From: Parcubacteria group bacterium Greene0714_7
GTDB lineage: Bacteria; Patescibacteriota; Minisyncoccia; Phycocordibacterales; Phycocordibacteraceae
Direction of reading: 5' to 3'
Assembly: GCA_007378985.1 (NCBI GenBank)
Contig: VMHB01000001.1
Span: 128,252-192,251 of the forward strand
Length of the DNA: 64,000 nucleotides
Shown here: positions 3,239 through 26,162 of the stretch, piece by piece
How positions within the stretch are numbered: position 1 is the first letter of the stretch
How the letters are laid out: every line of letters begins with the position of its first letter
The notes under the pieces: generated by a model
The model's database searches: none
Told to the model about the DNA's origin: nothing
Seen by the model: the letters and a program-made list of their open reading frames with translations, nothing else
Translations under genes and position numbers: made by a program

Positions 3239-3274
3239 TTTTTTCTAAATCTTTATTCCTCCTGTAATTATTTC

Positions 3275-3310
3275 ATATATACCCCTTATTCGCACGAATA
3301 AGGGGTATAT
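3275..3310. repeat. perfect palindrome ATATATACCCCTTATTCG-CA-CGAATAAGGGGTATATAT (family 1, copy 2)
   Basis: Seen directly. Other copies are at 2931-2959 (right arm complete, left arm partial), 5427-5464 and 5876-5909. Confidence 0.85.
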
Positions 3311-3392
3311 ATACATATAGAAAATTTGAATGGTTAGGTGCGTATGGCTGGTAGTGTGCTGAATTGAAAATATGGAGGTATAATCTCTTCTA

Positions 3393-4292
3393 ATGCAACA
3401 CATACTCGAGACTCAGCAGTTTGACCGCGAAGCCTTGAATAGTCTTTTTCAGGTTGCGACTTCTCTTGAAGGGAAGCGCACAAAGGATCTTGATGGAAAG
3501 ATTATGGCGTCGTTGTTTTTTGCACCATCCACGCGCACCCGCTTGAGTTTTGAGTCAGCCATGTACAGGCTCGGGGGGCATGTCATCTCAATGGAGAATG
3601 CGAGTGAGTCATCCTCCTCAACGAAAGGAGAGACCATAGAAGACACTATCCGCATCGTAGACAATTACGCGGATGTCATTGTTCTTCGTCACCCAGAAGT
3701 AGGGATGCTCGCGAGGGCTGCTGCTGTTTCGGAAGTCTCTGTCATTAATGGTGGAGACGGCATTGGTCAGCATCCAACGCAGGCGTTTCTTGATTTGTAT
3801 ACTATTTTTCGTGAGATAGGTCGCACTGATGATTTTCACATTGCATTCGTTGGAAACCTTGCGTACTATCGTGCCGCTCGTTCTCTCGCGTATCTTCTTG
3901 GTAAATACAACAATGTAAAAATGACATTCGTGTCTGGCCCGGAGCTTGCTATGAAAGACGATGTGAAAGAGTATTTGAAAGAGAGAGGAGTTCAGTTTAC
4001 CGAAACAGATGATTTAGTAGGAGCAATGCGCGAAGCCGATGTGGTGTATCAAACGCGTATTGCGGAAGAATGGATTCCTGATCACGATCAGTATGAAAAG
4101 CTTCGTGGCAAGTATGTCATTGACCGCGCATTGGTTGACCAGATGAAAGAAGGCTCTATACTCATTCATCCACTTCCACGAGCGGGCGAAATTACTCCTG
4201 AAGTTGATGATTCACCGCACGCAGTCTACTTCAAGCAAGCAGAATATGGCGTTCTTGTGCGCATGGCACTTTTGAAACTGTTACTTGGCTAA
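3393..4292 (+). CDS. pyrB: aspartate carbamoyltransferase catalytic subunit
   Basis: STRTR, HPTQ and HPLP motifs, about 299 aa. Confidence 0.85.
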   Translation: MQHILETQQFDREALNSLFQVATSLEGKRTKDLDGKIMASLFFAPSTRTRLSFESAMYRLGGHVISMENASESSSSTKGETIEDTIRIVDNYADVIVLRHPEVGMLARAAAVSEVSVINGGDGIGQHPTQAFLDLYTIFREIGRTDDFHIAFVGNLAYYRAARSLAYLLGKYNNVKMTFVSGPELAMKDDVKEYLKERGVQFTETDDLVGAMREADVVYQTRIAEEWIPDHDQYEKLRGKYVIDRALVDQMKEGSILIHPLPRAGEITPEVDDSPHAVYFKQAEYGVLVRMALLKLLLG

Positions 4293-4294
4293 AC

Positions 4295-5365
4295 TCAGGA
4301 AATCTTCCACTGAATTTGGAGGCGTTTAGCAGGATCTTCGTTATAGCCAAATGGACGAATGGTTTCGCCATTTGAAATTTGAACCAATGAGTCAATAGTC
4401 CAAGGGTTTTTGGTAAGAGTGGTTGTTTCTTCGTTTGGTGGAAGGCCATAAAACTTGGCTCCGTTTAAAGACGTAAATGTTTCTAGGTTTTCAAGTTTTC
4501 CCATATCTTCAAACACTTGTGTGTAGAGTTCAATTGCTGAAGGAACGGTAAAGATACCTGCTGCGGGTGGAGTTTTTTCTTTGGCGGACACTAGATGTGG
4601 CGCTGAGTCGGTACCAAGGAAAAAATGCGAGTCACCCGATGTTACTGCTTCGCGGAGGGCTTTTTGGTTTTCTTCATTTTTTATGACTGGCATACAGTGA
4701 AGGTACGCAGGTTCCTCGCTATGCTCTACATCCTCTCGATTTTCCATGAGGTGATGGAGAGTCACTGTTGAGCCAAGGCGATTGCTATTTTCGTTTCGTA
4801 CAAAGTCCACGGCGTCTTTCGTTGTTGCGTGCTCTAAGACTATTTTTAACTCAGGGAAATTTTTGAGGAGTGCGGGGAGGGTGGTATCAAGAAATACTTT
4901 TTCACGATCAAATGGGTCAATGGTATTTCCACTCTCATCTTTCAGTGCTTCTCCGTGCATAAGTATAGGCATGCCAACTTTTTGCATTGCCTCAAGAACT
5001 TCATATACCTTTCTAATATCAGTAACGCCTTGTGCTGAATTTGTAGTTGCACCAGCGGGATAGGCTTTTACTGCGGAAGCGATGCCATTTGTGAAGCCGT
5101 CCGCAATTTCTTTAGCCGAAGAGTTATCAGTGAGGTAGTAGGTCATCAAGGGCGTGAATGTTGGATACGCTTTGAGTGCTTCAGTTATTCGTTCTCTGTA
5201 CGCTTGTAGTTCGAGAGTGGTGGTGACGGGGTTTGGTGAGAGGTTGGGCATCACAATCGCTCGTCCAAAAGCCCGTGCAGTGAATGGCAAAACTGCTTCA
5301 AGCATTGCACCGTCTCTAAGATGCACATGCCAATCGTCAGGTTTGCGGATGGTTATTGAGTCCAT
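4295..5365 (-). CDS. pyrC: dihydroorotase, class II (E. coli PyrC-like)
   Basis: N-terminal IRKPDDWHVHLRDG and AIVMPNL closely match class II PyrC. It is convergent with pyrB. Confidence 0.8.
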   Translation of the reverse strand: MDSITIRKPDDWHVHLRDGAMLEAVLPFTARAFGRAIVMPNLSPNPVTTTLELQAYRERITEALKAYPTFTPLMTYYLTDNSSAKEIADGFTNGIASAVKAYPAGATTNSAQGVTDIRKVYEVLEAMQKVGMPILMHGEALKDESGNTIDPFDREKVFLDTTLPALLKNFPELKIVLEHATTKDAVDFVRNENSNRLGSTVTLHHLMENREDVEHSEEPAYLHCMPVIKNEENQKALREAVTSGDSHFFLGTDSAPHLVSAKEKTPPAAGIFTVPSAIELYTQVFEDMGKLENLETFTSLNGAKFYGLPPNEETTTLTKNPWTIDSLVQISNGETIRPFGYNEDPAKRLQIQWKIS

Positions 5366-8167: not shown

Positions 8168-8238
8168 TGGGGAATCGTCTAATGGTAGGACAGAGGCCTT
8201 TGAAGCCTTTAATTGGGGTTCGAATCCCTGTTCCCCAG
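8168..8238 (+). tRNA. tRNA-Gln (anticodon UUG)
   Basis: Manual fold. Acceptor TGGGGAA/TTCCCCA starts with U1-A72 like bacterial tRNA-Gln. The D-arm is GTCT/GGAC. The anticodon stem GAGGC/GCCTT carries loop CUUUGAA. The T-arm is TGGGG-TTCGAAT-CCCTG. The discriminator is G and no CCA is encoded. A hairpin plus T-run follows at 8253-8282. Confidence 0.7.
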
Positions 8239-8408
8239 CTAGAGAAAGTTGAATCCCGATGTGAAAACATCGGGATTTTTATTTTCTCTCTGTGGACAGG
8301 GATTCGAAAGACGGAGGCGCGAAGCCACATGTTTCATGTGTTGCCGAGTCGGGGTCGAGCGCACTTAGTATTTTACGAATTTGAGGAGTAAAATACTTAG
8401 TGACGGGT

Positions 8409-8430
8409 GACCGAATCCCTGTTCCCCAGC
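8409..8430 (+). repeat. direct copy of the tRNA-Gln 3' end (T-arm plus acceptor), copy 2
   Basis: GACCGAATCCCTGTTCCCCAGC matches 8217-8238. Further copies are at 8684-8705 and, truncated, at 12611-12623. A tRNA 5'-half-like fragment sits at 8477-8501 and an inverted T-arm fragment at 8294-8308. Confidence 0.7.
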
Positions 8431-8683
8431 AGTGCACACGAATGAACACTTTTTCATTCCCCTCGCTCGCTAGACAGTAGGACAGAGGCCTTTGAAGCCT
8501 TGAATTAGAGTTTTTTGCGAGCGAAGCGATCCATTACAAAAAAGCTCGAATTCACTTCGCGGATGTTGCGTATAGCAACACAAGAAGCTAATTGGGGTAA
8601 AAATTAGAGTTGGGCGATTAGAAAATCGTGCCGAGAGGCTTCGCAAGAAATTTCAGTCAAGAAATTTACTTGTGACCGAATCC

Positions 8684-8721
8684 CTGTTCCCCAGCCAGCT
8701 TGAGATAGGTTCAATGTCCAG
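8684..8721 (+). repeat. left direct repeat (tRNA-Gln 3' end plus CAGCTTGAGATAGGTT) bounding a 3.9-kb element
   Basis: Its partner at 12611-12638 (TTTCCCCAGC CAGCTTGAGCTAGGTT) has the same junction sequence after the tRNA-derived part. Confidence 0.6.
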
Positions 8722-8825
8722 AGAGCCTATCCAAGCACTATTCTGAAAAGGCATACCTGCTGAGAGCAGTATTCAAACAAAAAGCCACCCAATGGGTGGC
8801 TTTTTGTTTGCACTTTAATCTCGAG

Positions 8826-9059
8826 TTAACCGGGGTATTTCTCTGGATCCTTGCCATAGGTGTGTTCAGTTTGGATCGTTCCGTCACTCTTGTGGATTAT
8901 GACTTGTCCGAGGCCTGCAGATTGCGCGAGTCCTTTTGCAAGCTGCACAGCATCTGATTTGTCTTCAAGAATTTTCACAGCGCGGTCTGCGCCCCGTTCC
9001 TTCACCTTCCAATCGTCGCCGTTTGGTGTTACGTGATATATGCGTCTTGGCATATGCAT
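8826..9059 (-). CDS. DUF2188 domain protein
   Basis: YHVTPNGDDWKVKERGADRA ... IIHKSDGTIQTEHTYGKDP matches the DUF2188 pattern. It is the first gene inside the repeat-bounded element. Confidence 0.5.
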   Translation of the reverse strand: MHMPRRIYHVTPNGDDWKVKERGADRAVKILEDKSDAVQLAKGLAQSAGLGQVIIHKSDGTIQTEHTYGKDPEKYPG

Positions 9060-9191
9060 ATTTTAGATTTCGTTGATAATGGTGGTGTCGACCGTTGGGT
9101 AGGGGCCCCCACCCTTGACTGCCACATGGTACACATGATACAGTTCCCACCACGGGAGTCAACATGAAGGTACTGAAGATAACCCAGCATT

Positions 9192-9479
9192 ATGCAATTA
9201 GTTGGAAAAGAAATCTTAATTACCTTCAAAAATGAGCATCCCGATGCGCGTTCCCAGGTCGAAGCGTGGGAAGCCGAAGTGGAGAGTGCCGAATGGAAGA
9301 CTCCTCACGAGATCAAGAGGTCATATCAGAAGGTCAGTCTCCCCGGTAAACGGCAGGCCATATTCGATCTGTGCTGGAATAAATATCGGTTATGGGTGAA
9401 GGTCGCATACAACACCGGTATCGTAATTGTAAAAGCCATCGGAACCCATAAAGAATACGAAAAGTGGAACATTGAATAG
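9192..9479 (+). CDS. higB: type II toxin-antitoxin system HigB-family toxin (RelE/ParE superfamily)
   Basis: 95 aa. WNKYRLWVKVAYNTGIVIVKAIGTHKEYEKW matches the HigB_toxin signature. Confidence 0.65.
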   Translation: MQLVGKEILITFKNEHPDARSQVEAWEAEVESAEWKTPHEIKRSYQKVSLPGKRQAIFDLCWNKYRLWVKVAYNTGIVIVKAIGTHKEYEKWNIE

Positions 9480-9482
9480 TGT

Positions 9483-10700
9483 ATGAATGACATCAAAATC
9501 ATAAAAACGAAAGAAGATTGTAATCGAGCCCTACTACTCATTGAAGGGCTTGTTGATCGTGATCCAGAGGTTGGATCCGTGGATGCAGACCGCCTTACGC
9601 TTCTCACTGCGCTAGTTAAAGACTACGAATCAAAGAATTTTCCTGAACATCTTCCTGATCCTATTGAAGCAATCAGATTCCGCATGGAGCAAGCTGACCT
9701 TAAGCCTGCAGACCTCGTGCCTTACATAGGCACTGCTGCACGAGTGTCAGAAATTCTTTCAGGGAAACGGCAACTCACGTTGGATATGGTTAGAGCACTT
9801 TCTACAGGTCTTGGTATTCCGGCAAAAGTTCTCATACAAAAACCTTCACGTAATTTTGAATCCCAAAACTGGGACACAGCGCTTGTACGCACAATGGAGC
9901 GACGTGGTTATTTTGGCAAAAAGACTCTCAAGGAGCATGACAAATCAGAATTGGTTAGCGGATTTTTTGCGATGTTTGGTCATTTACAACCCACCGTTCT
10001 TTATCGAAAGACTAGTTTCCGTTCTGCTCCCCGCACTGATAATAGTGCCTTACTTGCTTGGGGAGTTCGCGTGCTTCAAAAAGCCGCAAAAATGAAAGTT
10101 GTCACTAAGTATAAAAAAGGAACAGTCAATTTATCTTTCATGAGTGCATTAATGCAATTGAGTGCAAAAGATAAAGGCCCACTTCTCGCTCGAGATCATC
10201 TCAAGAAACATGGCATCAAACTAATCATTGAGCCACATCTTCCTAAGACTCATCTAGATGGAGCAACTTTCTTTGCCGAAAAAGAGAATCCAGTTATCGG
10301 ACTGACTATTCGTCACGATCGTCCTGATAATTTCTGGTTTACCCTGATGCACGAACTTGGACACGTCGCATTACACCAAGATAACGACATCGAATCCTTC
10401 TACGACGAGGCACTTCAAGACAAGGATGGTGTAGAAATCGACTCCAAAGAAAAGGAAGCAGATACCCTCGCCGAAGAGTCTATCCTTCCAAAGAGTAAGT
10501 GGGAAACAAGCGCAGCAAAGACAACCCCGAATCAGTTTTCTACCGAAGACTTAGCGAATGAACTGGGTGTACAAATCGCCATCATTGCTGGCATGATCCG
10601 TTTTAAACATAAAAACTTCTATTACCTGAACAAAATAGTAAACGATAAAAGTCTGAGTGTCAGACAGTACTTTATGGAAGAGTTTGAAGAAAAAATATGA
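9483..10700 (+). CDS. HigA-like XRE-family HTH protein fused to an ImmA/IrrE (M78) zinc metallopeptidase domain
   Basis: The central HTH is AARVSEILSGKRQLTLDMVRALSTGLGIPAKVL. The C-terminal HEXXH is LMHELGHVALH. The start is 4 nt after the higB stop. The stop overlaps the next gene's start (ATGA). Confidence 0.65.
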   Translation: MNDIKIIKTKEDCNRALLLIEGLVDRDPEVGSVDADRLTLLTALVKDYESKNFPEHLPDPIEAIRFRMEQADLKPADLVPYIGTAARVSEILSGKRQLTLDMVRALSTGLGIPAKVLIQKPSRNFESQNWDTALVRTMERRGYFGKKTLKEHDKSELVSGFFAMFGHLQPTVLYRKTSFRSAPRTDNSALLAWGVRVLQKAAKMKVVTKYKKGTVNLSFMSALMQLSAKDKGPLLARDHLKKHGIKLIIEPHLPKTHLDGATFFAEKENPVIGLTIRHDRPDNFWFTLMHELGHVALHQDNDIESFYDEALQDKDGVEIDSKEKEADTLAEESILPKSKWETSAAKTTPNQFSTEDLANELGVQIAIIAGMIRFKHKNFYYLNKIVNDKSLSVRQYFMEEFEEKI

Positions 10701-11842
10701 CTAAAGTAGTCAAACCATACGTCCCTATATTGCGCTGGAGACCTGCTGAAATGGCGGCATTAGAAAGATTATTTCCAGATGATAGAGAAAATGTGACGCC
10801 ATTGATTGAGTTCATAATGCCTGGACCTTCGATTGATAAAGAAACCCGCAAAGTGACAAAAACACCTAGAGACAAGTTTCTAGAAATACTACCTAATGTC
10901 ACGAAAGACTTACTGAAATCTTGCGGGAAAACTCCAACGTTTATTGATGTCCATCTCCTCGATGGAGATATCCGAGCTTCTTCGCTTGAACAAATTCTCT
11001 CTTCATCGAGCGAACTGGATTTATTCTCTGTTCCAGTTACTTACATTATTCCAGTGACTAGTACGAGCGCAGACATGGAAACCCGCACGGTGGCAGTCAA
11101 TTATGCAAAGTCCAGTGGACATGGACTCTGTATTCGTATCGACAAATCTCACCTCAAGGAAGCAAAGTTCTCATCGCATATTACCGATTTTGTTAAGGCG
11201 AATAAATTGGATGTTGAGAACACTGACTTACTTGTCGATCTGCGCGTCATTGAAAAGGAAACTGATATAACAGAAATAGTAAGACAGCTTACACAACTTC
11301 CAGACCTGAAAAAGTGGCGTTCATTTATCGTGTCTGGTGGTGTTTTCCCGAAAGATTTAAGTGCATTCACAGCCGGTGAGGTACATCCTCTTGAACGACT
11401 GGATTGGAAGTTATGGAAAGCCGTTCGAGAAGCCGGATTGATTCGTATGCCGTTTTTTTCTGACTATACGATCCAGCATCCTTTTTACGAATATGTCGCC
11501 GCCATTGGGAGTGCCAGCATACGATACACAGCTGATGATAAGTGGTGGATTTTTAGAGGTAAGATTCCAGGTCTTATTAATAGGAAAACAAAAGAAAAAG
11601 GTCCAGGACGAGAACAATACATAGGACACGCTCAAACACTTATCAAACGAGATTTTTACAAGAAGAAAGAATATAGCTTTGGTGATGGGGAGATCGCCAG
11701 AATTGCTGCTCCCGGTAATGAAAAGCCGGGGAGTCCAACCACATGGCTCACCATTGGCATCAATCACCACCTCACGCTGGTTGCACGTCAGGCCTCCAAT
11801 CTTGCCGAGAAGATTGCAGAACCTTCCACACGTGTTTCTTAA
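10697..11842 (+). CDS. sce7725-like / beta-protein family protein (partner of sce7726-type proteins)
   Basis: The N-terminal YVPILRWRPAEMAALERL ... TPLIEF pattern matches what I recall of the beta-protein family. The start is translationally coupled to the upstream M78 gene. The 3' end overlaps the convergent gene by 71 nt. Confidence 0.4.
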   Translation: MTKVVKPYVPILRWRPAEMAALERLFPDDRENVTPLIEFIMPGPSIDKETRKVTKTPRDKFLEILPNVTKDLLKSCGKTPTFIDVHLLDGDIRASSLEQILSSSSELDLFSVPVTYIIPVTSTSADMETRTVAVNYAKSSGHGLCIRIDKSHLKEAKFSSHITDFVKANKLDVENTDLLVDLRVIEKETDITEIVRQLTQLPDLKKWRSFIVSGGVFPKDLSAFTAGEVHPLERLDWKLWKAVREAGLIRMPFFSDYTIQHPFYEYVAAIGSASIRYTADDKWWIFRGKIPGLINRKTKEKGPGREQYIGHAQTLIKRDFYKKKEYSFGDGEIARIAAPGNEKPGSPTTWLTIGINHHLTLVARQASNLAEKIAEPSTRVS

Positions 11843-12386
11843 GTGGTTTGAGTTCCATTGATTCAGCAAGTCGTTCGTAGACTAATTCGCGCGGTTTTGA
11901 GCGGACCCCATCCGCTTTACCGAGATTCTCTAGTTTATCGAGTGCTTCACCTCTCCATAGCATTCGAGCGATCGAGACATGATCCTGTTCCGGGTTATTT
12001 TTCGGTTTTCTGATCTTGTTAAAAAAGACTTGACCGTCCTCTCCTATATGTGCGGTATCAATGCCCCACCATTCAGGAATCATCTTAAATGCATCAACGA
12101 AATGTTTAGTGCCCACAATAAGTGTCACTTGATCAAAGATCGCATTATAAGCGTGTATTTGCTCGGGGAGTCTACTGAGTGTGTCGCGATCGCTTTTGAT
12201 TTCAAAGCCGCGCAAGACACCGTTTACAACGGCAACGTCAATTCTTACGGCTCCATGCCAGATTCCCAGCTCTGGAAGCACCCGATAATTCGGATAGTCT
12301 TTTGAGAGTCGATTTACGAGCGCCTCTCTTATTATGGTGTCGTTTGTTTGATTTTTTGTCCCAAGGGCAACACGACACAAATTCAT
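11772..12386 (-). CDS. sce7726-like small PD-(D/E)xK-fold protein
   Basis: RIDVAVVNGVLRGFEIKSDRDTLSRLPEQ carries the D ... E-x-K motif and length typical of the sce7726 family. It is convergent with and overlaps the sce7725-like gene. Confidence 0.45.
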   Translation of the reverse strand: MNLCRVALGTKNQTNDTIIREALVNRLSKDYPNYRVLPELGIWHGAVRIDVAVVNGVLRGFEIKSDRDTLSRLPEQIHAYNAIFDQVTLIVGTKHFVDAFKMIPEWWGIDTAHIGEDGQVFFNKIRKPKNNPEQDHVSIARMLWRGEALDKLENLGKADGVRSKPRELVYERLAESMELKPLKKHVWKVLQSSRQDWRPDVQPA

Positions 12387-12610
12387 ATCTACATTCTACA
12401 CTTATTAAATCGCATAAGAATAGAGCGGCACTGTGGATGCGATCCTTTTACGCTATGGCAACAATCTTGTCCTTAATTATAATGGCGTGACTTGAAACAC
12501 CTTATCAGTTTGCGTCTCTCCTGATTCGATCCTGAAACCTAGTTAGGTCCGAGGGAGTGGGTTGAACTAGAGTATTCAATAGAGAAAAAAGCTTCAAGCG
12601 TAAGACTCCT

Positions 12611-12638
12611 TGTTTCCCCAGCCAGCTTGAGCTAGGTT
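12611..12638 (+). repeat. right direct repeat (att-like) of the 3.9-kb element
   Basis: See 8684-8721. One mismatch lies in the 16-bp junction segment. Confidence 0.6.
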
Positions 12639-12695: not shown

Positions 12696-13046
12696 ATGAA
12701 ATGTTGGGGGTGTAATGAAAATAAGATCCCTTTCTTTACGTGGCTTGCTGGAGACAATCTATGTAGGGGTTGTACACAAAACATAACCTCTCCTGAAGTA
12801 AATAAGAATTACGCAGAGAATGTCGCTCTCATACACAAGAAAAATGTGGCACAGAATGAGAAAGTTGCAAAGCAAGCTGAAACGATAAAGGAACACGGGA
12901 AAAACATTCTCAGTTTAATTTTCGGCGGCATCGCACTGTTGTGGTTTGTTGTAATGCTTCCCGCTCAGCTCGACTTTGCTGGAATTGTTGTTGGTTGGGT
13001 AATAATCGGAGTCATATACCTAGCATTTAAAAGATTTTCTCGCTGA
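12696..13046 (+). CDS. zinc-ribbon membrane protein
   Basis: N-terminal CWGC ... CRGC with two C-terminal TM helices. Confidence 0.4.
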   Translation: MKCWGCNENKIPFFTWLAGDNLCRGCTQNITSPEVNKNYAENVALIHKKNVAQNEKVAKQAETIKEHGKNILSLIFGGIALLWFVVMLPAQLDFAGIVVGWVIIGVIYLAFKRFSR

Positions 13047-13050
13047 AAAA

Positions 13051-13269
13051 ATGAAACCGTATAAAGATTTGGATAAGAATTCTAGAATTGAAGCATATGA
13101 ATACGACGACCATCACATAACTCTTCACTTTAAGAATGGTGGAGAGAGGAATTATACAGACAAGATTGTTACGTTTTTTGATCTTGGTTCACTTAAGGCA
13201 AGGGCAGATATTGGGCAAGGCTTAGATGAGTACGTAAAGGAAATTGAAGGTGGGGCTAGTAAAGAATGA
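13051..13269 (+). CDS. KTSC domain protein
   Basis: IEAYEYDDHHITLHFKNGGERNYTD ... matches the KTSC domain pattern, 72 aa. Confidence 0.4.
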   Translation: MKPYKDLDKNSRIEAYEYDDHHITLHFKNGGERNYTDKIVTFFDLGSLKARADIGQGLDEYVKEIEGGASKE

Positions 13270-13374
13270 ATTTTTCACGCGTTCAAGTCGCGTCGATTTA
13301 ATAAGATAAAATTCAACTTCGTACCAGACTCCCAGCAATGACATAAAACAGCAAACCCTAAAAAGAGGTAGAAT

Positions 13375-13728
13375 ATGCGTATGTCGGACCTTCAAAGGCT
13401 TACCGAGGAGATTATTGCGTTTCGTAATGCTCGCGATTGGAAGCAATTTCATAACTCTAAAGACTGCGCTATTTCTCTTTCTCTAGAAGCAGCAGAGCTG
13501 TTGGAGCATTTTCAGTGGAAGAACAAGGAAGAGGTAAAAAAATATATTGAAACCAATAAATCTGATATCGGTGAAGAATTGGCCGATGTTTTGTATTGGG
13601 TTTTACTTATGAGTCATGATTTGGACATTGATATTTTAAGTGCGCTTGGAAAGAAAATTAAAAAGAATGAAGAAAAATATCCAATAGAAAAAGCGAAAGG
13701 AGTACATACGAAATATACAAAATTATGA
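13375..13728 (+). CDS. MazG-like nucleoside triphosphate pyrophosphohydrolase (small all-alpha NTP-PPase)
   Basis: RDWKQFHNSKDCAISLSLEAAELLEHFQWK and EELADVLYWVLLMSHDLDID are MazG/dCTPase-like EExxE/D motifs. The stop overlaps the downstream start (ATGA). Confidence 0.6.
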   Translation: MRMSDLQRLTEEIIAFRNARDWKQFHNSKDCAISLSLEAAELLEHFQWKNKEEVKKYIETNKSDIGEELADVLYWVLLMSHDLDIDILSALGKKIKKNEEKYPIEKAKGVHTKYTKL

Positions 13729-16001
13729 TTGTATACGAAGCCACAGCTAAAAAATTCATTGAGGATGTGGATTCTAATCAGATTCTTTCTGAGATTGAGA
13801 AGGCCTTCCGTGAAAAGCTCGGTAGAGGCATACCTCCTGGAGAGGTCAGTGCATATGTAAACTCACTACCTCATATGGAGAGGGTGGTCCGGCGGGCCGG
13901 AGTTGCGGACGATTGTGGAATTCTAATTGAGTACAAAATACCCCTGACCAACTTTCGCATAGATTTTGTGATTTCAGGGACAGACGAAGAAGGGAATAAG
14001 AATTTTGTAATTGTCGAATTGAAGCAATGGCAGAAAGCAAGAATTGCGGAGGGGGATGGGCTCGTTGAGTCATTTACGGGAGGTGCTCAGAGAGTAGTTA
14101 CTCATCCGAGCTACCAGTCCTCCAGGTATAAGGACTTCATGGGTGACTTTAACGAAGCGATATATAGCGGCTCTGTTAAGGCGTATTCGTGTGCTTACCT
14201 TCACAACTACCCCACAAGCGAGCCCGAACCGTTGCTCGATCATAAGTACCACAACGTTATTGCTAATTCACCCATATATTTCCGAGATGACCAAGCAAAG
14301 CTTCAGGACTTTATTGCAAAGTATGTAAAGTATGGGAAAGGTATGGACGTGCTATACGAAATTAGCAACGGAACCATACGACCCTCTAAGCGACTCATAG
14401 ATCATGTCGCCAGTATGTTCAAGGGCAATCAAAACTATATTCTAATGGACGAACAGAAGGTTGCCTTTGAGACTGCTCGATCCGTAGCCAATAAAGGTGA
14501 AAAAGCGATAGTAATAATTAAGGGAGGGCCAGGGACGGGCAAATCTGTAATCTCTGTTAATTTGGTGAGCGCTTTACTGACAGACAAACTAAATGCGTTA
14601 TTTGTTGCCCCGAATTCATCATTTCGCGACGTGCTGGTCAAAAAATTAACTCTTGAGAATTCTGCTCAAAGAATCAAGAACATCTTTAAGGGGTCTGCTT
14701 CTTTTTATAATGCAGAGGAGAACGAGTTTGATGTCCTAATTGTTGACGAAGCCCATAGGCTGAAGAAAAAAGGAGCTTTTATGTATGAGGGTGTGAATCA
14801 GGTCGCTGACGTTATTAAAGCTGCCCGAACGTCGATTTTCTTTATAGATGATGATCAGGCAGTTAGACCTGATGATATTGGAACCGTGCACGAATTGAAA
14901 CGACTAGCTGAGCAACACGACGCAAAAATATATGAAATGGAGCTAACAGCGCAATTTAGATGTGCCGGAGCGGAGGGCTATATAAATTGGCTGAATGACA
15001 CATTGCACTTAAAGGAAACTGCCAATTACGATGGCTGGGACAATAAGAGCTTCGATTTTAAAATTTTCGATGACCCAAACAAGTTGCGCGAAGCCATTAG
15101 CGAGAAATCAAAAAAGGGTAACGTTGCCAGAATCCTTGCGGGATATGCATGGGAGTGGACTGCTGCAAATAAGGGTAATGCGGACGGCGAAGTCGAGGAT
15201 ATCGTAATTTCAGAATTCGACTTCAGGATGCCGTGGAATTCACGCAAGGTTGGAACAACTTGGGCGATCGATGAAAAAGGAATTGAACAGGCTGGCTGTA
15301 TTCACACTTCCCAAGGATTAGAGTTTGATTACGTTGGTGTAATAATTGGAGACGATTTAAATTTTGATACGGAGAGTAAACTTTTCTCTACAGACCACAA
15401 GAAATATAAGGATAAGACTGGAAAGAAAGGCATGAAAGAGAAGCCTGAAGAATTGAATAGACTAGTCAGGAATATATATAAAGTTTTGATGACTCGTGGG
15501 ATGAAGGGCTGCTATGTCTATTTTTCGGATAAGGGGCTAGAGCATTATTTTAAAGAGAGAGTACGACTTACTGAGAGTAATTCAAGGCCTGGTGTACCTG
15601 TAGTGTCACCAATTACTCGAGAAATGCTTCAAATACCTCTAGTCGGATCGGCACCTTGTGGAGCTCCGTTACTCGGCCAGGAGAATATTGAAGAATATAT
15701 ATCTGTCGAGAAATCAAAGATCAGATCAGGGTTTGAGTACTTTGTTCTCAGAGCTGAAGGCGACTCCATGAATCTTGCTGGCATAAACGACGGTGACCTT
15801 GTGTTGTGTCGTCAACAATTAAAAGCGGATACCGGTGATAGGGTCGTGGCTTTACTTGGGGACAATGTGACGATAAAGGAATACGGTCCCCGCAAGGACG
15901 GAGTGCGCCTTCTTTTGCCAAAAAGTTCAAATAAAGATCACACACCAATTACCCCAAGCGAAGGAGATAGTGTGCAAGGAATTGTGCAAGAGGTCTTATG
16001 A
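13725..16001 (+). CDS. three-domain protein: N-terminal PD-(D/E)xK nuclease-like, DUF2075/SF1-helicase-like ATPase, and C-terminal LexA/UmuD-type S24 autopeptidase
   Basis: The PD-(D/E)xK region is RIDFVISG ... FVIVELKQW (about 13956-14035). Walker A is GGPGTGKSV (about 14521) and Walker B is VLIVDEAH. The UvrD_C-like region is CIHTSQGLEFDYVGVI. The S24 tail has the Cys-Gly site APCG (15657-15662), the Ser motif GDSM (Ser at 15765) and the Lys motif VTIKEY. Confidence 0.7.
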   Translation: MIVYEATAKKFIEDVDSNQILSEIEKAFREKLGRGIPPGEVSAYVNSLPHMERVVRRAGVADDCGILIEYKIPLTNFRIDFVISGTDEEGNKNFVIVELKQWQKARIAEGDGLVESFTGGAQRVVTHPSYQSSRYKDFMGDFNEAIYSGSVKAYSCAYLHNYPTSEPEPLLDHKYHNVIANSPIYFRDDQAKLQDFIAKYVKYGKGMDVLYEISNGTIRPSKRLIDHVASMFKGNQNYILMDEQKVAFETARSVANKGEKAIVIIKGGPGTGKSVISVNLVSALLTDKLNALFVAPNSSFRDVLVKKLTLENSAQRIKNIFKGSASFYNAEENEFDVLIVDEAHRLKKKGAFMYEGVNQVADVIKAARTSIFFIDDDQAVRPDDIGTVHELKRLAEQHDAKIYEMELTAQFRCAGAEGYINWLNDTLHLKETANYDGWDNKSFDFKIFDDPNKLREAISEKSKKGNVARILAGYAWEWTAANKGNADGEVEDIVISEFDFRMPWNSRKVGTTWAIDEKGIEQAGCIHTSQGLEFDYVGVIIGDDLNFDTESKLFSTDHKKYKDKTGKKGMKEKPEELNRLVRNIYKVLMTRGMKGCYVYFSDKGLEHYFKERVRLTESNSRPGVPVVSPITREMLQIPLVGSAPCGAPLLGQENIEEYISVEKSKIRSGFEYFVLRAEGDSMNLAGINDGDLVLCRQQLKADTGDRVVALLGDNVTIKEYGPRKDGVRLLLPKSSNKDHTPITPSEGDSVQGIVQEVL

Positions 16002-16387
16002 AAATAATACAAGACGACGTATTAAGTTATAGAGAAATGTGTAATTCTGAAAACCAGGAAGTTATGCAACGTGGTATGAATTTTCGTATGAACCCTTCGT
16101 ACTCAGTTATTTTGATGTCACAGAGAGCAAATGCACCATATTCAGACAAGGTTCATGGTGATGGGGTTACAATCGAGTACGAAGGACATGATATTTCAAA
16201 AGCTTATAGTAAAAATCCAAAAGTAGAAGATCAGCCAGAAAAACTTTCAAGCGGTAAGCTAACACAGAATGGTTTCTTTATTAAGGCTGTGAATGATTTC
16301 AAAATGAAAGGGGGAATACCAGAACTAGTAAAAGTATATGAAAAGTGTTTCCTGGAGTCTGGTCTTTTAAAGGGTACTTTGATTTAG
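15998..16387 (+). CDS. hypothetical protein, possibly the N-terminal part of the downstream HNH nuclease (frameshift)
   Basis: 129-aa ORF ending 43 nt inside the next ORF, which is in the -1 frame. The start overlaps the upstream stop (ATGA). Confidence 0.35.
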   Translation: MKIIQDDVLSYREMCNSENQEVMQRGMNFRMNPSYSVILMSQRANAPYSDKVHGDGVTIEYEGHDISKAYSKNPKVEDQPEKLSSGKLTQNGFFIKAVNDFKMKGGIPELVKVYEKCFLESGLLKGTLI

Positions 16388-16692
16388 TTGATTATAAAGT
16401 TGTTCACGATCAATATCGAAATGTATTTCGATACATTCTACAACTATCTGATCGCTCAGAAAGTTCGAATGTAGAAAAAAAGAAGTTGGAGCATAGCAGG
16501 TTGATTCCTTCAGAGGTTAAAAGAGAGGTTTGGAAAAGAGATGGGGGGGAATGTGTTATTTGTGGCGATAATAAAAATCTTCACTTTGATCATGATTTAC
16601 CATTTTCTAGAGGTGGAACTAGTTTATCGACAAAGAATGTTCGCCTGCTTTGTATGAAACACAATCTTCAGAAATCAGATAAAATTGAGTAG
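16345..16692 (+). CDS. HNH endonuclease domain protein
   Basis: CVICGDNKNLHFDHDLPFSRGG ... NVRLLCMKHN is an HNH motif with Zn-binding Cys/His. The true start is uncertain and a frameshift from 15998-16387 is possible. Confidence 0.55.
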   Translation: MFPGVWSFKGYFDLVDYKVVHDQYRNVFRYILQLSDRSESSNVEKKKLEHSRLIPSEVKREVWKRDGGECVICGDNKNLHFDHDLPFSRGGTSLSTKNVRLLCMKHNLQKSDKIE

Positions 16693-16778
16693 TAAATTTA
16701 TATTTGAAGATGTATTGGATGATCCCCGCAGACCTTGATACTAAAATGCGTAAAAATCACAGAAAGTCATAAATTCCC

Positions 16779-16838
16779 ATGCCCCTCATCTCCAAAACAA
16801 CCTTCCTTGAATTCCTGATGTGCCCCAAGAATGAGTGA
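16779..16838 (+). pseudogene. duplicated 5' fragment of the DUF2779 gene (homologous to the start of 28251-29756)
   Basis: ATGCCCCTCATCTCCAAAACAACCTTCCTTGAATTCCTGATGTGCCCCAAGAA encodes MPLISKTTFLEFLMCPKNE-stop. This matches MSTLISKTTFLEFLMCPKN at 28251 closely at nucleotide level. Confidence 0.6.
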
Positions 16839-16848
16839 GAGAAAGTAT

Positions 16849-16884
16849 CCACACCAAGGCGAACGAACGTTCGCCTTGGTGTGG
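16849..16884. repeat. 36-bp perfect palindrome CCACACCAAGGCGAACG|AACGTTCGCCTTGGTGTGG followed by TATAATTTTTT
   Basis: Seen directly. It lies between the DUF2779 gene fragment and the RhuM/Fic start, and could be a terminator, an operator or an insertion boundary. Confidence 0.6.
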
Positions 16885-16900
16885 TATAATTTTTTAAAGT

Positions 16901-17881
16901 ATGAAAAAGAAACCAGTAAAAAATAACGTAGTTATCTATCAAGCAAAAAACGGCGCTATTGAGCTTCGTGGGGATTTTGAGCATGAGAGTATTTGGGCAA
17001 CACAGGCTGAAATAGCTCGACTATTTGATGTGACTCCTCAAAATATTACTTTACACCTTGGAGGTATTTTTAAGGAAAAAGAGCTTGATCAAAAGGCAAC
17101 TTGTAAGGATTTCTTACAAGTTCAAACAGAGGGAGATAGGCAGGTAAAGAGAAACGTTAAGCTCTATAATCTTGATGTCATTATTGCTGTTGGTTACCGA
17201 ATTAATTCGGTAATAGGTACGAATTTTCGCATATGGGCAACCAAGACGCTCCGTGAGCACATAACCAAAGGCTACACAATAAACCGTAAGCAAATCGGCA
17301 AGAATTACGATTCTTTTATGAAAACGGTTTCGGACATTCAGGCACTGTTGCCCGAACACGTAACGCTCGACCCTAAAGCGATACTCGAACTTGTAAAAGA
17401 GTTCTCAAGTACGTGGGTGTCACTTGATGCCTATGACAAAGGAACGCTCAAGGCTGTTGGATCAACTAAAAAATCAATTACACTCACCGGTATTGAATTG
17501 ACTGAAGCGATTTTGAGTTTCCGTTCCGAGTTGTTGAACAAAGGTGAGGCAACAGAGATATTTGCACAAGAAAGATCTGAGGGAAGTGTTGAAGGAATAG
17601 TAGGGAACGTCATGCAATCATTCGGTGGCAAACCCCTCTATGTGTCTCTCGAAGAGAAAGCGGCACACCTCTTGTACTTTATGGTGAAGAATCATCCGTT
17701 TGTTGATGGCAACAAACGCTCAGGTGCATTTGCGTTCATTTGGTTTTTACGTAAAGCAAAAGTTAAAACAATGCGGAATATAAACCAGGGAGCGTTGACT
17801 GCGCTTACTCTTTTGATTGCAGAAAGCGATCCCGATAAGAAAGACCACATGGTTGCGTTGGTTACAGAGATTCTGAAGTAG
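16901..17881 (+). CDS. RhuM-family N-terminal domain fused to Fic/Doc (death-on-curing-type) domain protein
   Basis: The RhuM-like N-terminus is VVIYQ ... IELRGDFEHESIWATQAEIARLF ... NLDVIIAVGYRINS ... FRIWATKTL. The C-terminal Fic motif is HPFVDGNKRSGA. Confidence 0.65.
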   Translation: MKKKPVKNNVVIYQAKNGAIELRGDFEHESIWATQAEIARLFDVTPQNITLHLGGIFKEKELDQKATCKDFLQVQTEGDRQVKRNVKLYNLDVIIAVGYRINSVIGTNFRIWATKTLREHITKGYTINRKQIGKNYDSFMKTVSDIQALLPEHVTLDPKAILELVKEFSSTWVSLDAYDKGTLKAVGSTKKSITLTGIELTEAILSFRSELLNKGEATEIFAQERSEGSVEGIVGNVMQSFGGKPLYVSLEEKAAHLLYFMVKNHPFVDGNKRSGAFAFIWFLRKAKVKTMRNINQGALTALTLLIAESDPDKKDHMVALVTEILK

Positions 17882-18867: not shown

Positions 18868-20367
18868 ATGAAACTTTTCAAATTCCTTTCTCTTATAGGA
18901 GCGGTTTTATTCCTTGTGCCATGCGTGGTAATTGCAGTTGATATGACTGCCCCTGTGGCACCCGAAATGCCGGCGGGTCCTTCAATTTCCAGCGTCTCCG
19001 TTACAGACATTACCAATACGAGCGCACGAATTGATATTAATTCTGATGAGGTAGTGCAAGGATACGTCGAGTACGGCACGAGCAGAGAGTACGGCATGTC
19101 GACACCACTTACGAGCGAGTTTAGTACGTCACCTTCTTTTTTGCTGGAAAATCTTTCTCCTGAGACGCTCTATCATTACCGAGTCATTGTCATGGATTCA
19201 AGTGGCACGGCGACAATAACGGGCGACGAGACCTTTACCACGCTCGCGACTCCCGAACCGGAACCTGAACCGGAACAATCACCAACACAAACTGCGACTA
19301 CAACGACACCGACAAGCGACACAAATACGGCCACATCAACCTCAACTACCACCGCTACCACGACCCCGCCTGCCCCGGCGCTCGCAGTCTCGAATACGGA
19401 GACCGCATCGGTGAGCACTTCGACCGTACGCATTACCTGGCAGACCAATAAGAATGCCGATGGTCAGGTGCAATATGGCACGACCAGTGCATATGGATCA
19501 CTGTCACTGCTTGGCACGATCTCCACCTCGCACTCGATATCGCTGTCGAGTCTTACGCCAAATACGAAGTATTATTATCGTGCCATTTCCAAAACTTCTT
19601 CTGGCGAGACAGCGTATAGCCAACCCCAAACATTCACGACTCTTGTCTATGTGCCACCCACTCCTTCAACCGCCACTTCCACTTCTACATCGGGTGCGCC
19701 TGTACAAACCGCTACCACAAGTCCAGTAACTGTAGCTTCTTCAACTCCGCCCGTTTCAAATAGTTCTACTGTCATTGGATCAGTAACCAAACCCGGAGGG
19801 CTACCGGTCGCGCCCACGCGACCGCTACTGGTGCGTGTTGAAGTAGGTGACAGAAAGGTTGCTTTTGCATGGAAAAAAGATGTAGGAGTAAAAAACGCCA
19901 CTATACATACGCTCATTGTGAAAAAGGAAGGGACTTCGTATGTCACTTCACGCGTTGATGGGGCAGTCATCTACGATGGCCCATCGACATCTTTTACTGA
20001 TACGAATGTTGAGAATGGAAAGGAATACCACTACGCTCTCTATTCATATGGTATGTATGGCAGGTTCACTGCCCCGTTTCGTTTCAAAGTGATACCTCGT
20101 GCCGAAGAAAAAGCCAATTTCACTCCTGAAGTTGAAACATTGCCTACTCCCGCGCTTACCCGTGATCTCTTCCAAGGAAAGCAGGGCGAAGACGTCAAAG
20201 CTCTGCAAACATACCTCGCGTATGAAGGGTACTATCCTGAAGCACTCATAACGGGTTATTTTGGTATTCTCACGAAGAATGCGGTTACTCGATATCAGAA
20301 ATTGAATGACATCATACCAATGGCAGGATATGTTGGTCCAATTACTAGGGAAGCTCTCGGTAGATAA
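18868..20367 (+). CDS. secreted cell-surface protein with fibronectin type III-like domains, Thr/Pro-rich linkers and a C-terminal peptidoglycan-binding domain
   Basis: Signal peptide and FN3-like repeats (GTSREYGMSTPL, YYYRAISKTSSGET). The C-terminal PG_binding_1-like segment is GEDVKALQTYLAYEGYYPEALITGYFGILTKNAVTRYQ. Confidence 0.6.
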   Translation: MKLFKFLSLIGAVLFLVPCVVIAVDMTAPVAPEMPAGPSISSVSVTDITNTSARIDINSDEVVQGYVEYGTSREYGMSTPLTSEFSTSPSFLLENLSPETLYHYRVIVMDSSGTATITGDETFTTLATPEPEPEPEQSPTQTATTTTPTSDTNTATSTSTTTATTTPPAPALAVSNTETASVSTSTVRITWQTNKNADGQVQYGTTSAYGSLSLLGTISTSHSISLSSLTPNTKYYYRAISKTSSGETAYSQPQTFTTLVYVPPTPSTATSTSTSGAPVQTATTSPVTVASSTPPVSNSSTVIGSVTKPGGLPVAPTRPLLVRVEVGDRKVAFAWKKDVGVKNATIHTLIVKKEGTSYVTSRVDGAVIYDGPSTSFTDTNVENGKEYHYALYSYGMYGRFTAPFRFKVIPRAEEKANFTPEVETLPTPALTRDLFQGKQGEDVKALQTYLAYEGYYPEALITGYFGILTKNAVTRYQKLNDIIPMAGYVGPITREALGR

Positions 20368-20453
20368 CGTTACTTTCTGAGTTTTTCTTTTACCTGAACA
20401 TTTCAGATACAAAAATGTACAGGTAGCGTAACGTATATTTTTATTGCTACAAT

Positions 20454-24836: not shown

Positions 24837-25313
24837 TTAACCCCGCCTTGCTGCATCAATAGTAGCGACATCGATTTTTTGCATTGTCATCATTGCGTCG
24901 AAGGCACGCTTTGCTTCAGCGCCACCGACTGCCAAAGCTTCAGTGAGGGTGCGTGGTGTTATTTGCCACGATACTCCCCATCGGTCTTTGCACCATCCAC
25001 ACTCACTCTCTTTGCCACCATTCCCCACAATTGCATTCCAGTAGCGATCTGTTTCTTCCTGAGTGTCTGTTGCTATCTGAAAAGAGAATGCCTCGCTTTG
25101 CTTAAACACAGGGCCACCGTTTAAGCCAATACAAGGGATTCCGCAAACAGTGAACTCTACGGTGAGCACATCGCCCGCCTTACCACTTGGAAAATCACTA
25201 GGTGCACGAAAGACAGCCGTTGCCTTACTGTTGGGGAAAGTAGCTGCATAAAAGTTCGCTGCGGTTTCTGCGTCCGTATCAAACCAGAGACAAATGGTGT
25301 TCTTTGATGTCAT
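24837..25313 (-). CDS. VOC-family (glyoxalase/PhnB-like) protein
   Basis: ICLWFDTDAETAANFY ... CGWCKDRWGVSWQI resembles PhnB/3-demethylubiquinone methyltransferase-like VOC proteins. Confidence 0.5.
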   Translation of the reverse strand: MTSKNTICLWFDTDAETAANFYAATFPNSKATAVFRAPSDFPSGKAGDVLTVEFTVCGIPCIGLNGGPVFKQSEAFSFQIATDTQEETDRYWNAIVGNGGKESECGWCKDRWGVSWQITPRTLTEALAVGGAEAKRAFDAMMTMQKIDVATIDAARRG

Positions 25314-25451
25314 AGTTGTATACAGTATATCTTTTTTTAGACGCTGAGCGTTTCTAATAGACTGGCGAACCTCATTCTTTGACAGCTACTAGTTTCATGT
25401 TATAAAGTGAGTTACTGGTTAGATTTTTGAATATCTCTGGCTGTAGTTTTT

Positions 25452-25979: not shown

Positions 25980-26162
25980 TTGTATTTATTTGATATTTGT
26001 TCATTTGAGGGTCGAACGCGAGAGGCAAATCTCTATTCCAAAAATAGTAGTTTTTATATACAAAATCAAAAATGAAATAAATGTTGTTTTTGAATGTATT
26101 AGTATTGGCAAGAGGAAAGTATCTTCTTGCACCATGGTTATTACTTACTAAATGATACAATA

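Follow-up and report, generated by a model that had tools for sequence, protein, structure and literature searches.

A covarying structured element joined to copied tRNA 3' ends at a hypervariable tRNA-Gln island of a Parcubacteria genome

The 64,000-nucleotide (nt) stretch of the genome of Parcubacteria group bacterium Greene0714_7 that was analysed here, referred to as the window (contig VMHB01000001.1, positions 128,252 to 192,251), contains a single tRNA gene over its full length, tRNA-Gln(UUG), which ARAGORN places on the plus strand at the locus where a sequence-only reading of this DNA had already recognised it. Immediately upstream of this gene lie dnaX and a gene for a secreted protein of 196 amino acids (aa), the latter nearest to the tRNA and with a product 100% identical to the NCBI entry Greene07147_152. 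Behind it follow two short units, each with a copy of a structured element that runs into a duplicate of the tRNA's 3' terminus, and further on a 3.9-kb segment with a predicted defence system and other accessory genes (Table 1). The element is matched by no family of Rfam 15, in which only the tRNA itself finds a match. Islands at tRNA genes are well known; what is new at this locus is an unannotated, strongly covarying element that is found at the junctions, without an adjacent recombinase, across the Patescibacteria superphylum.

The repeated block consists of the last 19 nt of the tRNA-Gln gene (8221-8239), from the T-loop to the 3' end. This 19-mer, CGAATCCCTGTTCCCCAGC, occurs exactly three times in the window, namely in the tRNA itself and at 8412-8430 and 8677-8695, whereas 0.01 matches are expected by chance and none of 100 shuffles reached three occurrences. 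The sequence-only reading had described the repeated tRNA end as 22 nt long; the copy that it reported at 8409-8430 stands, but the one it gave as 8684-8705 is about 10 nt off and lies at 8674-8695, and the 22-mer GACCGAATCCC... is common only to these two extra copies. As the tRNA itself reads GTTCGAATCCC at this place, the true tRNA-derived block is 19 nt long, and the prefix GTGAC that precedes both extra copies of the 19-mer is not tRNA-like. The smaller pieces listed by that reading were all recovered, including a truncated tRNA-end copy (12614-12622), a copy of the middle of the tRNA at 8477-8512 that had been described as resembling its 5' half (92% over 36 nt), an inverted copy of the T-arm (8296-8308; 13 nt, 100% complementary to 8219-8231) and a hairpin at 8362-8402 with arms of 15 nt each (8362-8376 and 8388-8402, 93% complementary). 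Likewise, the junction said to be shared by the last two tRNA-end copies proves to be a direct repeat of 25 nt, TTCCCCAGCCAGCTTGAG[A/C]TAGGTT, present at 8687-8711 and 12614-12638 with one mismatch, and this repeat brackets the 3.9-kb segment.

It had been proposed that serial integrations left these fragments behind in scrambled form, and this part of the proposal is too simple. The hairpin, together with the inverted T-arm copy before it and the second tRNA-end copy behind it, constitutes one conserved, covarying element (8297-8421), which forms the central part of unit 1 (8240-8430, 191 bp) between an intrinsic terminator and the end of the 19-nt tRNA-end copy. The minimum-energy fold of this copy yields a three-way junction (-57.2 kcal/mol, z -5.15), the same as that of the covariance model R1 described below. 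In helix P1, CAGGGAUUCG, which is the inverted T-arm copy, pairs with CGAAUCCCUG, the start of the tRNA-end copy; helix P2 (GAC/GUC, 3 bp) closes hairpin 1, and helix P3 (GGUCG/UGACC, with one G.U pair) closes hairpin 2, which is the hairpin with the 15-nt arms mentioned above. The terminator stands between tRNA-Gln and the structured element, and no promoter was predicted in the window.

Unit 2 begins with decayed pieces of tRNA-Gln in the order of the tRNA, of which positions 18-42 are found at 8477-8501 and TAATTGGGGT at 8590-8599, with an insert of 88 nt between them, and it continues with a degenerate copy of the element whose type of hairpin 2 is also seen in two of the loci collected from other sequences (L006 and L083). 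In this unit TAATTGGGGT is followed by the element and then by CGAATCCC, a layout that recurs in a tRNA-Gln-like pseudogene of locus L111; in both cases the T-loop is interrupted by the element, and from this shared layout P1 looks like a T-stem, and the whole element like a T-arm with about 90 nt inserted in its loop. The right border of the 3.9-kb segment is probably formed by a decayed element, a truncated tRNA end and the same 16-nt flank that follows unit 2. The region 12553-12638 aligns with copy 2 at a local alignment score of 58, against a background maximum of 34, although the score is mostly driven by the 25-mer, and R1 does not detect a third copy (~12553-12613) at E<=10.

Two details of these sequences may be recorded separately. 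The stretch 8431-8611, including the 88-nt insert between the pieces that resemble tRNA positions 18-42 and 43-52, contains three degenerate copies of AATTGGGGTT/AATTAGAGTT and is 98% identical to the related contig L008. The pseudogene of L111, which lies on the reverse strand (4387-4537 and 4551-4624 in the oriented sequence) and has its T-loop interrupted by the interior of the element, is followed 13 nt later by an intact tRNA-Gln(CUG).

Contigs of related genomes were fetched via homologues of the 196-aa protein encoded upstream of the tRNA. One of them (L001) represents the same strain, 99.7% identical to the window over 18 kb; in the other three the identity of this protein to that of the window is 86% (L003), 71% (L006) and 69% (L008). 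These three contigs retain an identical tRNA-Gln in the same place, together with dnaX, the 196-aa gene and the genes of pyrimidine biosynthesis, and they differ in the gene sets behind the tRNA, in keeping with the integration hotspot that the sequence-only reading had suspected. In L003 an AAA_21 gene, an EcoRI-type methylase, GmrSD/HNH and DUF2779 are found there, and in L008 a trypsin-like gene, HEPN, two methylases, DUF6997 and DUF2779. L006 has essentially no island; the tRNA region is followed there directly by three genes, which encode a 202-aa protein, a sigma-70 factor and a 248-aa protein. The orthologues of these three genes in the window are located at 26.1-28.2 kb and are preceded by a decayed element copy at about 26005-26045; window positions 26028-28158 match L006 11089-13228 at 81% (blastn). 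With this relic of L006-type sequence at ~26.0 kb, the distance from the tRNA to the oldest junction in the window is therefore ~17.8 kb. The segment of 3.9 kb that had been taken for the inserted element is indeed a discrete module, but the island is much larger, and on this comparison the single tRNA-Gln(UUG) gene anchors a hypervariable island of ~18 kb with predicted accessory and defence genes.

Comparison of the intergenic regions with those of L008 and L003 also shows that unit 1 has been inserted precisely: in these two contigs AGTGCACAC adjoins the tRNA end directly, and in the window AGTGCACAC comes after the second core copy instead. The tRNA-end copies, which had been likened to attachment (att) sites of an integrated element, thus do behave as junction repeats, but each of them is the tail of a conserved structured unit.

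Some rearrangements are seen around the tRNA in these relatives. The gene order around the island differs among the window (24837-29756), L006, L003 and L008, with a 3-dmu/AAA_33 gene pair and DUF2779 shifting relative to the tRNA. In L003 (10745-10960) and L008 (10738-10950), a 20-nt duplicate of the 5' end of tRNA-Gln (TGGGGAATCGTCTAATGGTA) lies ~94 bp upstream of the functional tRNA-Gln, which is bracketed by an imperfect inverted repeat of ~33 nt (TGTCAGCGCTCC.TCGGAAATGAAAAAGTGTTC / GAACACTTTTTCATTCCCCTCA.TCGCTAGACA). Because of this duplicate, the inverted repeat and the downstream fragments of tRNA positions 18-42, 43-52 and 56-72, it looks as if an older tRNA-Gln gene had taken up a tRNA-bearing segment in its D-loop, with a duplication of GTA.

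The architecture of the element recurs behind the tRNA-Gln genes of L006, L048, L056 and L083, and its conserved cores are GGAUUCGAA, GGGGUCG and GUGACCGAAUCC. The pattern GGGGTCG N25-55 GTGACCGAATCCCTG was used to search for further members of the family, and in its gapped form it returned 76 metagenomic loci and 0 viral contigs; apart from the loci derived from synteny, the collection was thus gathered with GGGGTCG and GTGACCGAATCCCTG fixed. Covariance model R1, built from 28 short forms of the element, reports 92 sites in ~80 loci of metagenomic or genomic origin. Wherever the host is named it belongs to the Patescibacteria, with both Parcubacteria and Saccharibacteria included, and two Saccharibacteria contigs carry the element, once behind tRNA-Gln(CUG). 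A genome scan with a 17-mer had yielded 88 loci, of which ~82 were chance matches in unrelated phyla; these were reused as a negative control, and R1 has no match in the 625 kb of such unrelated loci, nor in 16 viral loci. A search of 2.9 million viral contigs (IMG/VR) with two patterns gave no genuine match either. In Rfam, the best hits of window positions 8285-8445 (161 nt, E<=10) and of L113 2440-2620 have E-values of ~1 or worse and score far below the gathering thresholds, and text searches of the literature with core sequence strings and related topics returned nothing relevant to the element.

The element copies of L135 and L159 have a G+C content of 70-75%, unusually high for Patescibacteria. 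Two weak R1 matches (28 and 22 bits), which represent variant forms of the element, lie in L188 (12900-13230) at the far end of an island with a PD-Lambda-2 system and methylases, with no tRNA in 15 kb and without a recognisable tRNA-end tail.

A few known classes were considered and rejected. Transfer-messenger RNA, including its two-piece form, was suggested by the string GGAUUCGA, and both ARAGORN and Rfam find none. A group I, group II or T-loop intron, suggested by L111 and unit 2, has support neither from Rfam nor from the literature, and the consensus cores of the kink-turn, the hammerhead and other known ribozymes are absent. The strands of P1 resemble the terminal inverted repeats of a miniature inverted-repeat transposable element, but the flanking bases are not duplicated and the tRNA-end duplicate is present on one side only.

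Wherever the available sequence suffices to decide, the element is found 80-150 nt behind a tRNA gene on the same strand, a distance counted between the 3' end of the tRNA and the GGGGTCG core. Those concerned are Gln(UUG/CUG), Ser(GCU/CGA/GGA), Asn, Arg, His, Met, Glu and Gly, and so represent eight amino-acid specificities; another tally comes to nine isoacceptor types and seven specificities. In 30 of 36 non-redundant pairs of tRNA and element, a stretch of 9 nt or more from the final 16 nt of the paired tRNA recurs exactly behind the element (median 14 nt), as compared with 24 of 1200 mismatched control pairs, and this copying of the neighbouring tRNA is observed for each of the eight specificities. 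Behind tRNAs with a CCCUG T-stem, the tRNA-end copy directly continues the 3' strand of P1; for other T-stems an extra 17-54 nt precede the new tRNA-end copy, often in the form CCTGCC...GGCAGG, a stretch which is possibly a tail retained from an earlier tRNA-Gln host. Tandem units, or units with genes between them, are seen in L101, L106, L170, L146/L128/L155 and L048, and some copies of the element stand at a great distance from every tRNA, with cargo and a decayed tRNA-end copy in front of them. Among the 55 tRNAs in these loci, a sample biased toward carriers, 36 carry a unit. L140 has two adjacent tRNA genes (3272-3474 and 3640-3830), each with an element copy of its own that ends in the 3' end of its own tRNA.

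This distribution bears on an explanation of the locus in which no mobile element takes part and the fragments are decayed tandem duplicates of tRNA-Gln produced by unequal crossing-over and slippage, with parallel decay elsewhere. Such an origin would agree with the tRNA order of the pieces in unit 2, with the pseudo-tRNA-Gln that stands in tandem with an intact gene in L111, with the 20-nt duplicate of the tRNA 5' end in L003 and L008, and with a duplication in L120 that includes the terminator. Nevertheless, the cores GGAG, CGAG, GGGGUCG and GUGAC as well as the two hairpins are not derived from tRNA and are shared across Parcubacteria, Saccharibacteria and the eight specificities, and behind tRNAs for Ser, Arg, Met and Glu the P1 of the unit remains of the CCCUG type, unmatched to the T-arm of the tRNA in question. 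Judged from these comparisons, the explanation is already contradicted by the occurrence of the element behind different tRNAs, and we regard it as highly improbable.

The explanation that we favour, tentatively and with somewhat less than even confidence, is that these are non-autonomous insertion units whose fold serves as an attachment module used in trans. New DNA would enter at the 3' end of the tRNA gene and push older insertions outward, and the insertion would duplicate the last 11-21 nt of the tRNA (19 nt in the window). Each tRNA-end copy recurs with a unit of ~190-265 bp composed of terminator, three-way-junction element and tRNA-end copy, and the hairpin terminator of the unit would end transcription of the tRNA anew. 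P1 pairs an anti-T-arm strand with the copied strand of T-loop and T-stem and so rebuilds a helix resembling a T-stem. The folded element, read either as a folded DNA strand or as a transcript, would act in cis as the attachment module, and a recombinase encoded elsewhere would recognise it in trans. In function such a module would be akin to the attC/attI platform of integrons or to a cis-mobilizable element.

The fold itself is supported by several lines of evidence. RNAalifold recovers P2, P3 and hairpin 2 unguided, with compensatory changes in 12 of 18 predicted pairs. In the 92-site alignment, which was fitted to R1 so that its pairing and covariation figures lean toward the model, 89.7% of the cells are paired as against 71.3% in shuffles, and the covariation score is 0.412 as against 0.108 for shuffled alignments (0 of 500 reach it) and 0.04-0.07 with slid partners. 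The middle pair of P2 nevertheless shows all four Watson-Crick combinations (GC 27, CG 17, AU 11, UA 9). In the matches that are not forced by the search pattern, P1 and P3 co-vary with the neighbouring tRNA (L118, L140 and L170). In L118 the upstream tRNA ends in ...CGATTCTCTCCACCCGCA and P1 of the element is GAGGGAGUCG/CGAUUCUCUC, where C-G has become G-C and two pairs are G.U, and in P3 a G-C pair replaces the G.U pair; in L170, P3 is GGUAG/GUUACC, with a C-G to A-U swap. Variants of P1 with tandem G.A also occur. On the tRNA-sense strand G.U pairs exceed A.C pairs by 77 to 46, or by 151 to 46 if the conserved pair of P3 is counted, and it is therefore this strand that folds, as RNA or as single-stranded DNA.

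Orthologous units allow the fold to be followed over shorter distances. Those of the window, L048 and L056 have identical cores, and their differences are confined to loops and to compensatory pairs of the terminator and of hairpins 1 and 2, while the coding DNA that flanks them is only 76-81% identical. Because the stems have changed in a compensatory manner only, despite such divergence of the flanks, the fold is taken to be kept under selection in the orthologous copies, and a neutral scar would not be expected to behave in this way.

The covariation and the compensatory changes would also be expected if the element were a resident non-coding RNA, acting in cis or in trans and transcribed by read-through from the tRNA promoter or from a promoter of its own, with the island as a separate matter. 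In such a case the tRNA-like tail and the T-stem-like P1 would perform some function for the host, such as that of a mimic, a decoy or a regulator directed at a factor with affinity for tRNA 3' ends. The strong covariation, the conserved G.U pair of P3, the tandem G.A variants of P1, the excess of G.U over A.C pairs and the maintenance of orthologous copies by compensatory change are all consistent with this possibility, as are the constant position of the element on the strand of the tRNA, just downstream, and the location of most copies among housekeeping genes without cargo. However, an intrinsic terminator usually stands between tRNA and element, the window has no predicted promoter, and 19 of the 55 tRNAs in the carrier-biased sample do without the element. 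A resident RNA also leaves unexplained why the tail copies the upstream tRNA, sometimes after an older tail, and why there are tandem arrays, cargo between copies and presence or absence between close relatives. We consider it a serious alternative, albeit a rather unlikely one.

For the favoured reading, in which insertion units are used in trans, the genes near the element are of particular relevance. Neither Pfam nor PADLOC detects an integrase or recombinase domain in the main open reading frames (ORFs) between 8.8 and 18.8 kb, which agrees with the earlier statement that the island has no integrase, and ten further ORFs of recombinase size elsewhere in the window have no recombinase domain. 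From this we infer, as the sequence-only reading did, that the island may be immobilised or mobilised in trans. Clustering of 1310 ORFs from the collected loci revealed no family that recurs beside the element, except for syntenic housekeeping neighbours. By Pfam annotation of 140 non-redundant neighbours within 5 kb, no recombinase family occurs in two or more of them or among the 25 commonest families, a result that leaves room for isolated integrases; the commonest families are NUDIX, AAA, ABC and methylases. Seeds of large serine recombinases have no homologue in the element-bearing loci, and genes of the TnpB, IscB, Cas12, IS110-type and Cas12k-Tns kinds are absent from the families seen near element copies.

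These searches weigh on two further explanations. The units may be ordinary scars of integrase-bearing prophages or islands, with the element as a conserved arm of the phage attachment site (attP) and the short units as remnants of internal deletions. Tyrosine integrases that target tRNA genes classically leave direct repeats of the stretch between the T-loop and the 3' end of the tRNA, the unit brings a replacement terminator as attP regions often do, and the PD-Lambda-2 module of the window adjoins a large serine recombinase in other genomes. On the other hand, within the scans made an integrase adjoins none of the ~80 loci, the 2.9 million viral contigs gave 0 matches, and more than 30 independent short units share one compact architecture where random deletions would leave ragged remnants. 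Covariation with G.U pairs points to a folded single strand and not to protein-binding sites in a duplex, and compensatory substitutions would not preserve neutral scars. Large serine recombinases, moreover, exchange strands at a 2-bp core and produce no repeats of 11-25 nt. This origin is accordingly considered improbable.

Alternatively, element and tail together could constitute a guide RNA, with a scaffold and a 3' guide that would steer an unlinked RNA-guided recombinase or nuclease to tRNA ends, after the model of TnpB omega-RNAs, IS110 bridge RNAs and the homing CRISPR RNA (crRNA) of type V-K CRISPR-associated transposons (CASTs). The conserved scaffold does have a variable tail behind it that always corresponds to the end of the local tRNA, P1 changes in step with the target tRNA, the folded strand is the tRNA-sense strand and the unit encodes no protein. 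Yet no TnpB, IscB, Cas12 or IS110-type gene was seen near any copy, there is no match to an omega-RNA or related family in Rfam, the terminator lies upstream of the element, and a duplication made by insertion explains the tail more simply, so that we deem a guide RNA very unlikely.

The insertion-unit reading has weaknesses of its own. No recombinase partner has been identified, which makes mobilisation in trans an assumption, and neither a free or circular form of the unit nor a site in the excised state was seen. In most loci the unit is located among housekeeping genes without cargo, which would suit a resident RNA gene equally well, and the compensatory conservation argues for a function in place and not specifically for recombination. 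In some loci, such as L120, the duplication runs past the tRNA end and includes the terminator, as tandem duplication or homologous recombination could bring about. The third copy of the window is too decayed for R1, and the breadth of the family as well as the invariance of P3 and of the 3' strand of P1 are biased by the search pattern. A bolder form of the same idea, which we think unlikely, is a cassette-capture system of Patescibacteria on tRNA genes, in which the element with its tRNA-end copy, read as a folded DNA strand or as a guide-like transcript, would instruct an unlinked recombinase, and gene cassettes would be inserted, stacked and exchanged immediately behind tRNA genes. By analogy, such a system would be a functional counterpart of integrons or of bridge-RNA recombination, with a previously undescribed nucleic-acid component.

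Comparison with known systems shows partial likeness in each case. As in tRNA-linked islands, the locus has a boundary tRNA with direct repeats of its 3' part and a content that varies between relatives, but no integrase was found in the main ORFs of the island. Accretion at tRNA genes with partial tRNAs scattered through the islands has been described for the tycheposons of Prochlorococcus (10.1101/2020.12.28.424599). These tRNA-anchored islands resemble the present one in the tRNA at a fixed edge, the partial direct repeats of its 3' end, the outward push of older insertions and the hypervariable accessory and defence cargo. They differ in that no tyrosine recombinase or replication module was found here in or near the units, and the fusion of each partial tRNA to a covarying structured element has not been described for them.

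Integron arrays, including clusters of attC sites lacking integron-integrases (CALINs), are alike in that short site-like units form arrays, often without an adjacent integrase, that structure is conserved over sequence, and that empty and gene-bearing units both occur; as a working hypothesis, a folded single strand as the site would parallel attC. The R''/R' cores of attC (RYYYAAC / GTTRRRY) are absent from the units, however, whose internal cores are strongly conserved. The anchor of the element is a tRNA 3' end instead of an attI beside intI, with none upstream of the tRNA in the region of dnaX and the 196-aa protein gene, and the cargo lies in both orientations with terminators of its own. 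The cis-mobilizable elements (CIMEs) of streptococci are segments bounded by att repeats at the end of a conserved gene, which have no recombination genes of their own and accrete in tandem. They share with the present units the att-like repeats around DNA without recombination genes and the tandem accretion, but for CIMEs a cognate integrative and conjugative element or integrase that uses the same att site is known, whereas here the partner was not found and the att-like region is structured. In the homing crRNA of type V-K CASTs and the omega-RNA of TnpB, a structured scaffold is followed by sequence that matches the target. A comparable scaffold with target-matching sequence is present here at the end of the insert far from the tRNA gene, although no Cas12k, TnsB, TnsC, TniQ or TnpB gene was found, the units measure only ~190 bp and Rfam gives no match.

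If the element is a recombination module, it would show how bacteria with tiny genomes acquire and shuffle defence genes without integrases in their islands, and it could reveal a new structure-dependent or RNA-guided mechanism of site-specific insertion. If it is a host RNA, it would represent a new and widespread class of non-coding RNA tied to tRNA 3' ends. Whichever reading holds, R1 provides a concrete handle for genome-wide surveys.

Table 1. Features of the tRNA-Gln island, with positions in the window
Feature	Position	Strand	Basis
tRNA-Gln(UUG), island anchor	8168-8239	+	ARAGORN; Rfam tRNA score 61.5 bits; identical tRNA at the same position in L001, L003, L006, L008
Intrinsic terminator hairpin with T-run, left part of unit 1	8251-8286	+	Terminator scan; compensatory stem changes in orthologues L048, L056
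Structured element copy 1, three-way junction	8297-8421	+	R1 64.3 bits, E 5e-18; minimum-energy fold agrees
tRNA-end copy 1, 19 nt exact; first 10 nt form the 3' strand of P1; ends unit 1	8412-8430	+	19-mer count; unit 1 absent from L008, L003
Unit 2, left part, decayed tRNA-Gln pieces in tRNA order	8431-8611	+	98% identical to L008 10887-11079; layout like the L111 pseudo-tRNA with interrupted T-loop
Structured element copy 2, degenerate; P2 and hairpin 1 lost; hairpin 2 AAAUUUC/GAAAUUU	8612-8686	+	R1 36.4 bits, E 4e-9
tRNA-end copy 2 (19 nt, 8677-8695) with 16-nt flank CAGCTTGAGATAGGTT	8677-8711	+	8687-8711 is the left copy of the 25-nt repeat; flank homologous to sequence after the last L008 tRNA fragment
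Cargo of the 3.9-kb segment	8826-12386	both	Pfam and PADLOC; same module in L188-L193
DUF2188/PDC-S16	8826-9059	-	Pfam/PADLOC
PD-Lambda-2 A, HigB-like	9192-9479	+	PADLOC E 8e-34
PD-Lambda-2 B, HTH and M78 peptidase	9483-10700	+	PADLOC E 2e-133
PD-Lambda-2 C, Beta protein	10697-11842	+	PADLOC E 2e-43
P4 cII-like gene	11772-12386	-	Pfam/PADLOC
Probable decayed element with truncated tRNA-end copy (12614-12622) and flank	12553-12638	+	25-nt repeat, right-hand copy at 12614-12638
Further island cargo: 116-aa and 72-aa ORFs, MazG-like, SLFN/DUF2075 helicase-S24 peptidase fusion, HNH, RhuM/Fic (PDC-S23)	12696-17881	+	Pfam, PADLOC
Relic of the oldest unit, GAGGGTCGAACGCGAG...CAAATCTCTATTCCAAAAA	26005-26045	+	Homologous to element and tRNA-end copy 84 nt behind the L006 tRNA

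The 3.9-kb segment carries a predicted PD-Lambda-2 defence system, for which three adjacent genes match components A, B and C and the gene order is conserved in L188-L193. In comparison with the known system, a P4 cII-like gene and DUF2188 are additionally present, and the setting is a tRNA island of Parcubacteria. Homologues of the Beta protein with 70-80% identity are found in other Patescibacteria and in one Sideroxydans assembly (Betaproteobacteria), and the ~78% identity to the latter suggests that the module may have been transferred across phyla. The same module of 4-5 genes adjoins a large serine recombinase in L188 (4313-5359), L190 (350-1681) and L191 (10371-11315); in L191 it is located directly behind tRNA-Ser(CGA), and in L192 it is inverted, inside another island of tRNA-Gln and element. 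Its recurrence in such different settings (L188-L192) marks it as discrete and, by this comparison, mobile cargo. The copy in the window has no recombinase, as a large-serine-recombinase gene (Resolvase, Recombinase and Zn ribbon), sought for this cargo, is absent from the island. The 116-aa ORF after the right-hand repeat is unrelated to a 117-aa ORF of L188, and the module therefore ends near 12.4-12.6 kb.

Beyond this module, RhuM/Fic also borders the variable region on the right in L003, as a conserved neighbour, and only fragments of it are present in L006 and L008. At 13375-16001, a gene for a MazG-like pyrophosphohydrolase overlaps the start of a 758-aa fusion of an SLFN/DUF2075 helicase with a LexA-type S24 peptidase, with weak PADLOC matches to AbiO and Nhi; this pair is a candidate two-gene defence module, and related helicase genes are present in six element-bearing loci. 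Two overlapping ORFs of 129 aa and 115 aa at 15998-16692, the second with an HNH motif, represent either one frameshifted gene or two genes, and they are the same in L001. Finally, a 499-aa protein with fibronectin-III and peptidoglycan-binding domains and a 1414-aa protein are encoded at 18868-24698, where the G+C content is 0.49-0.55 as compared with ~0.43-0.47 in the core flanks; in the relatives these two genes are located between RhuM/Fic and the core genes, and the region may be a further foreign segment.

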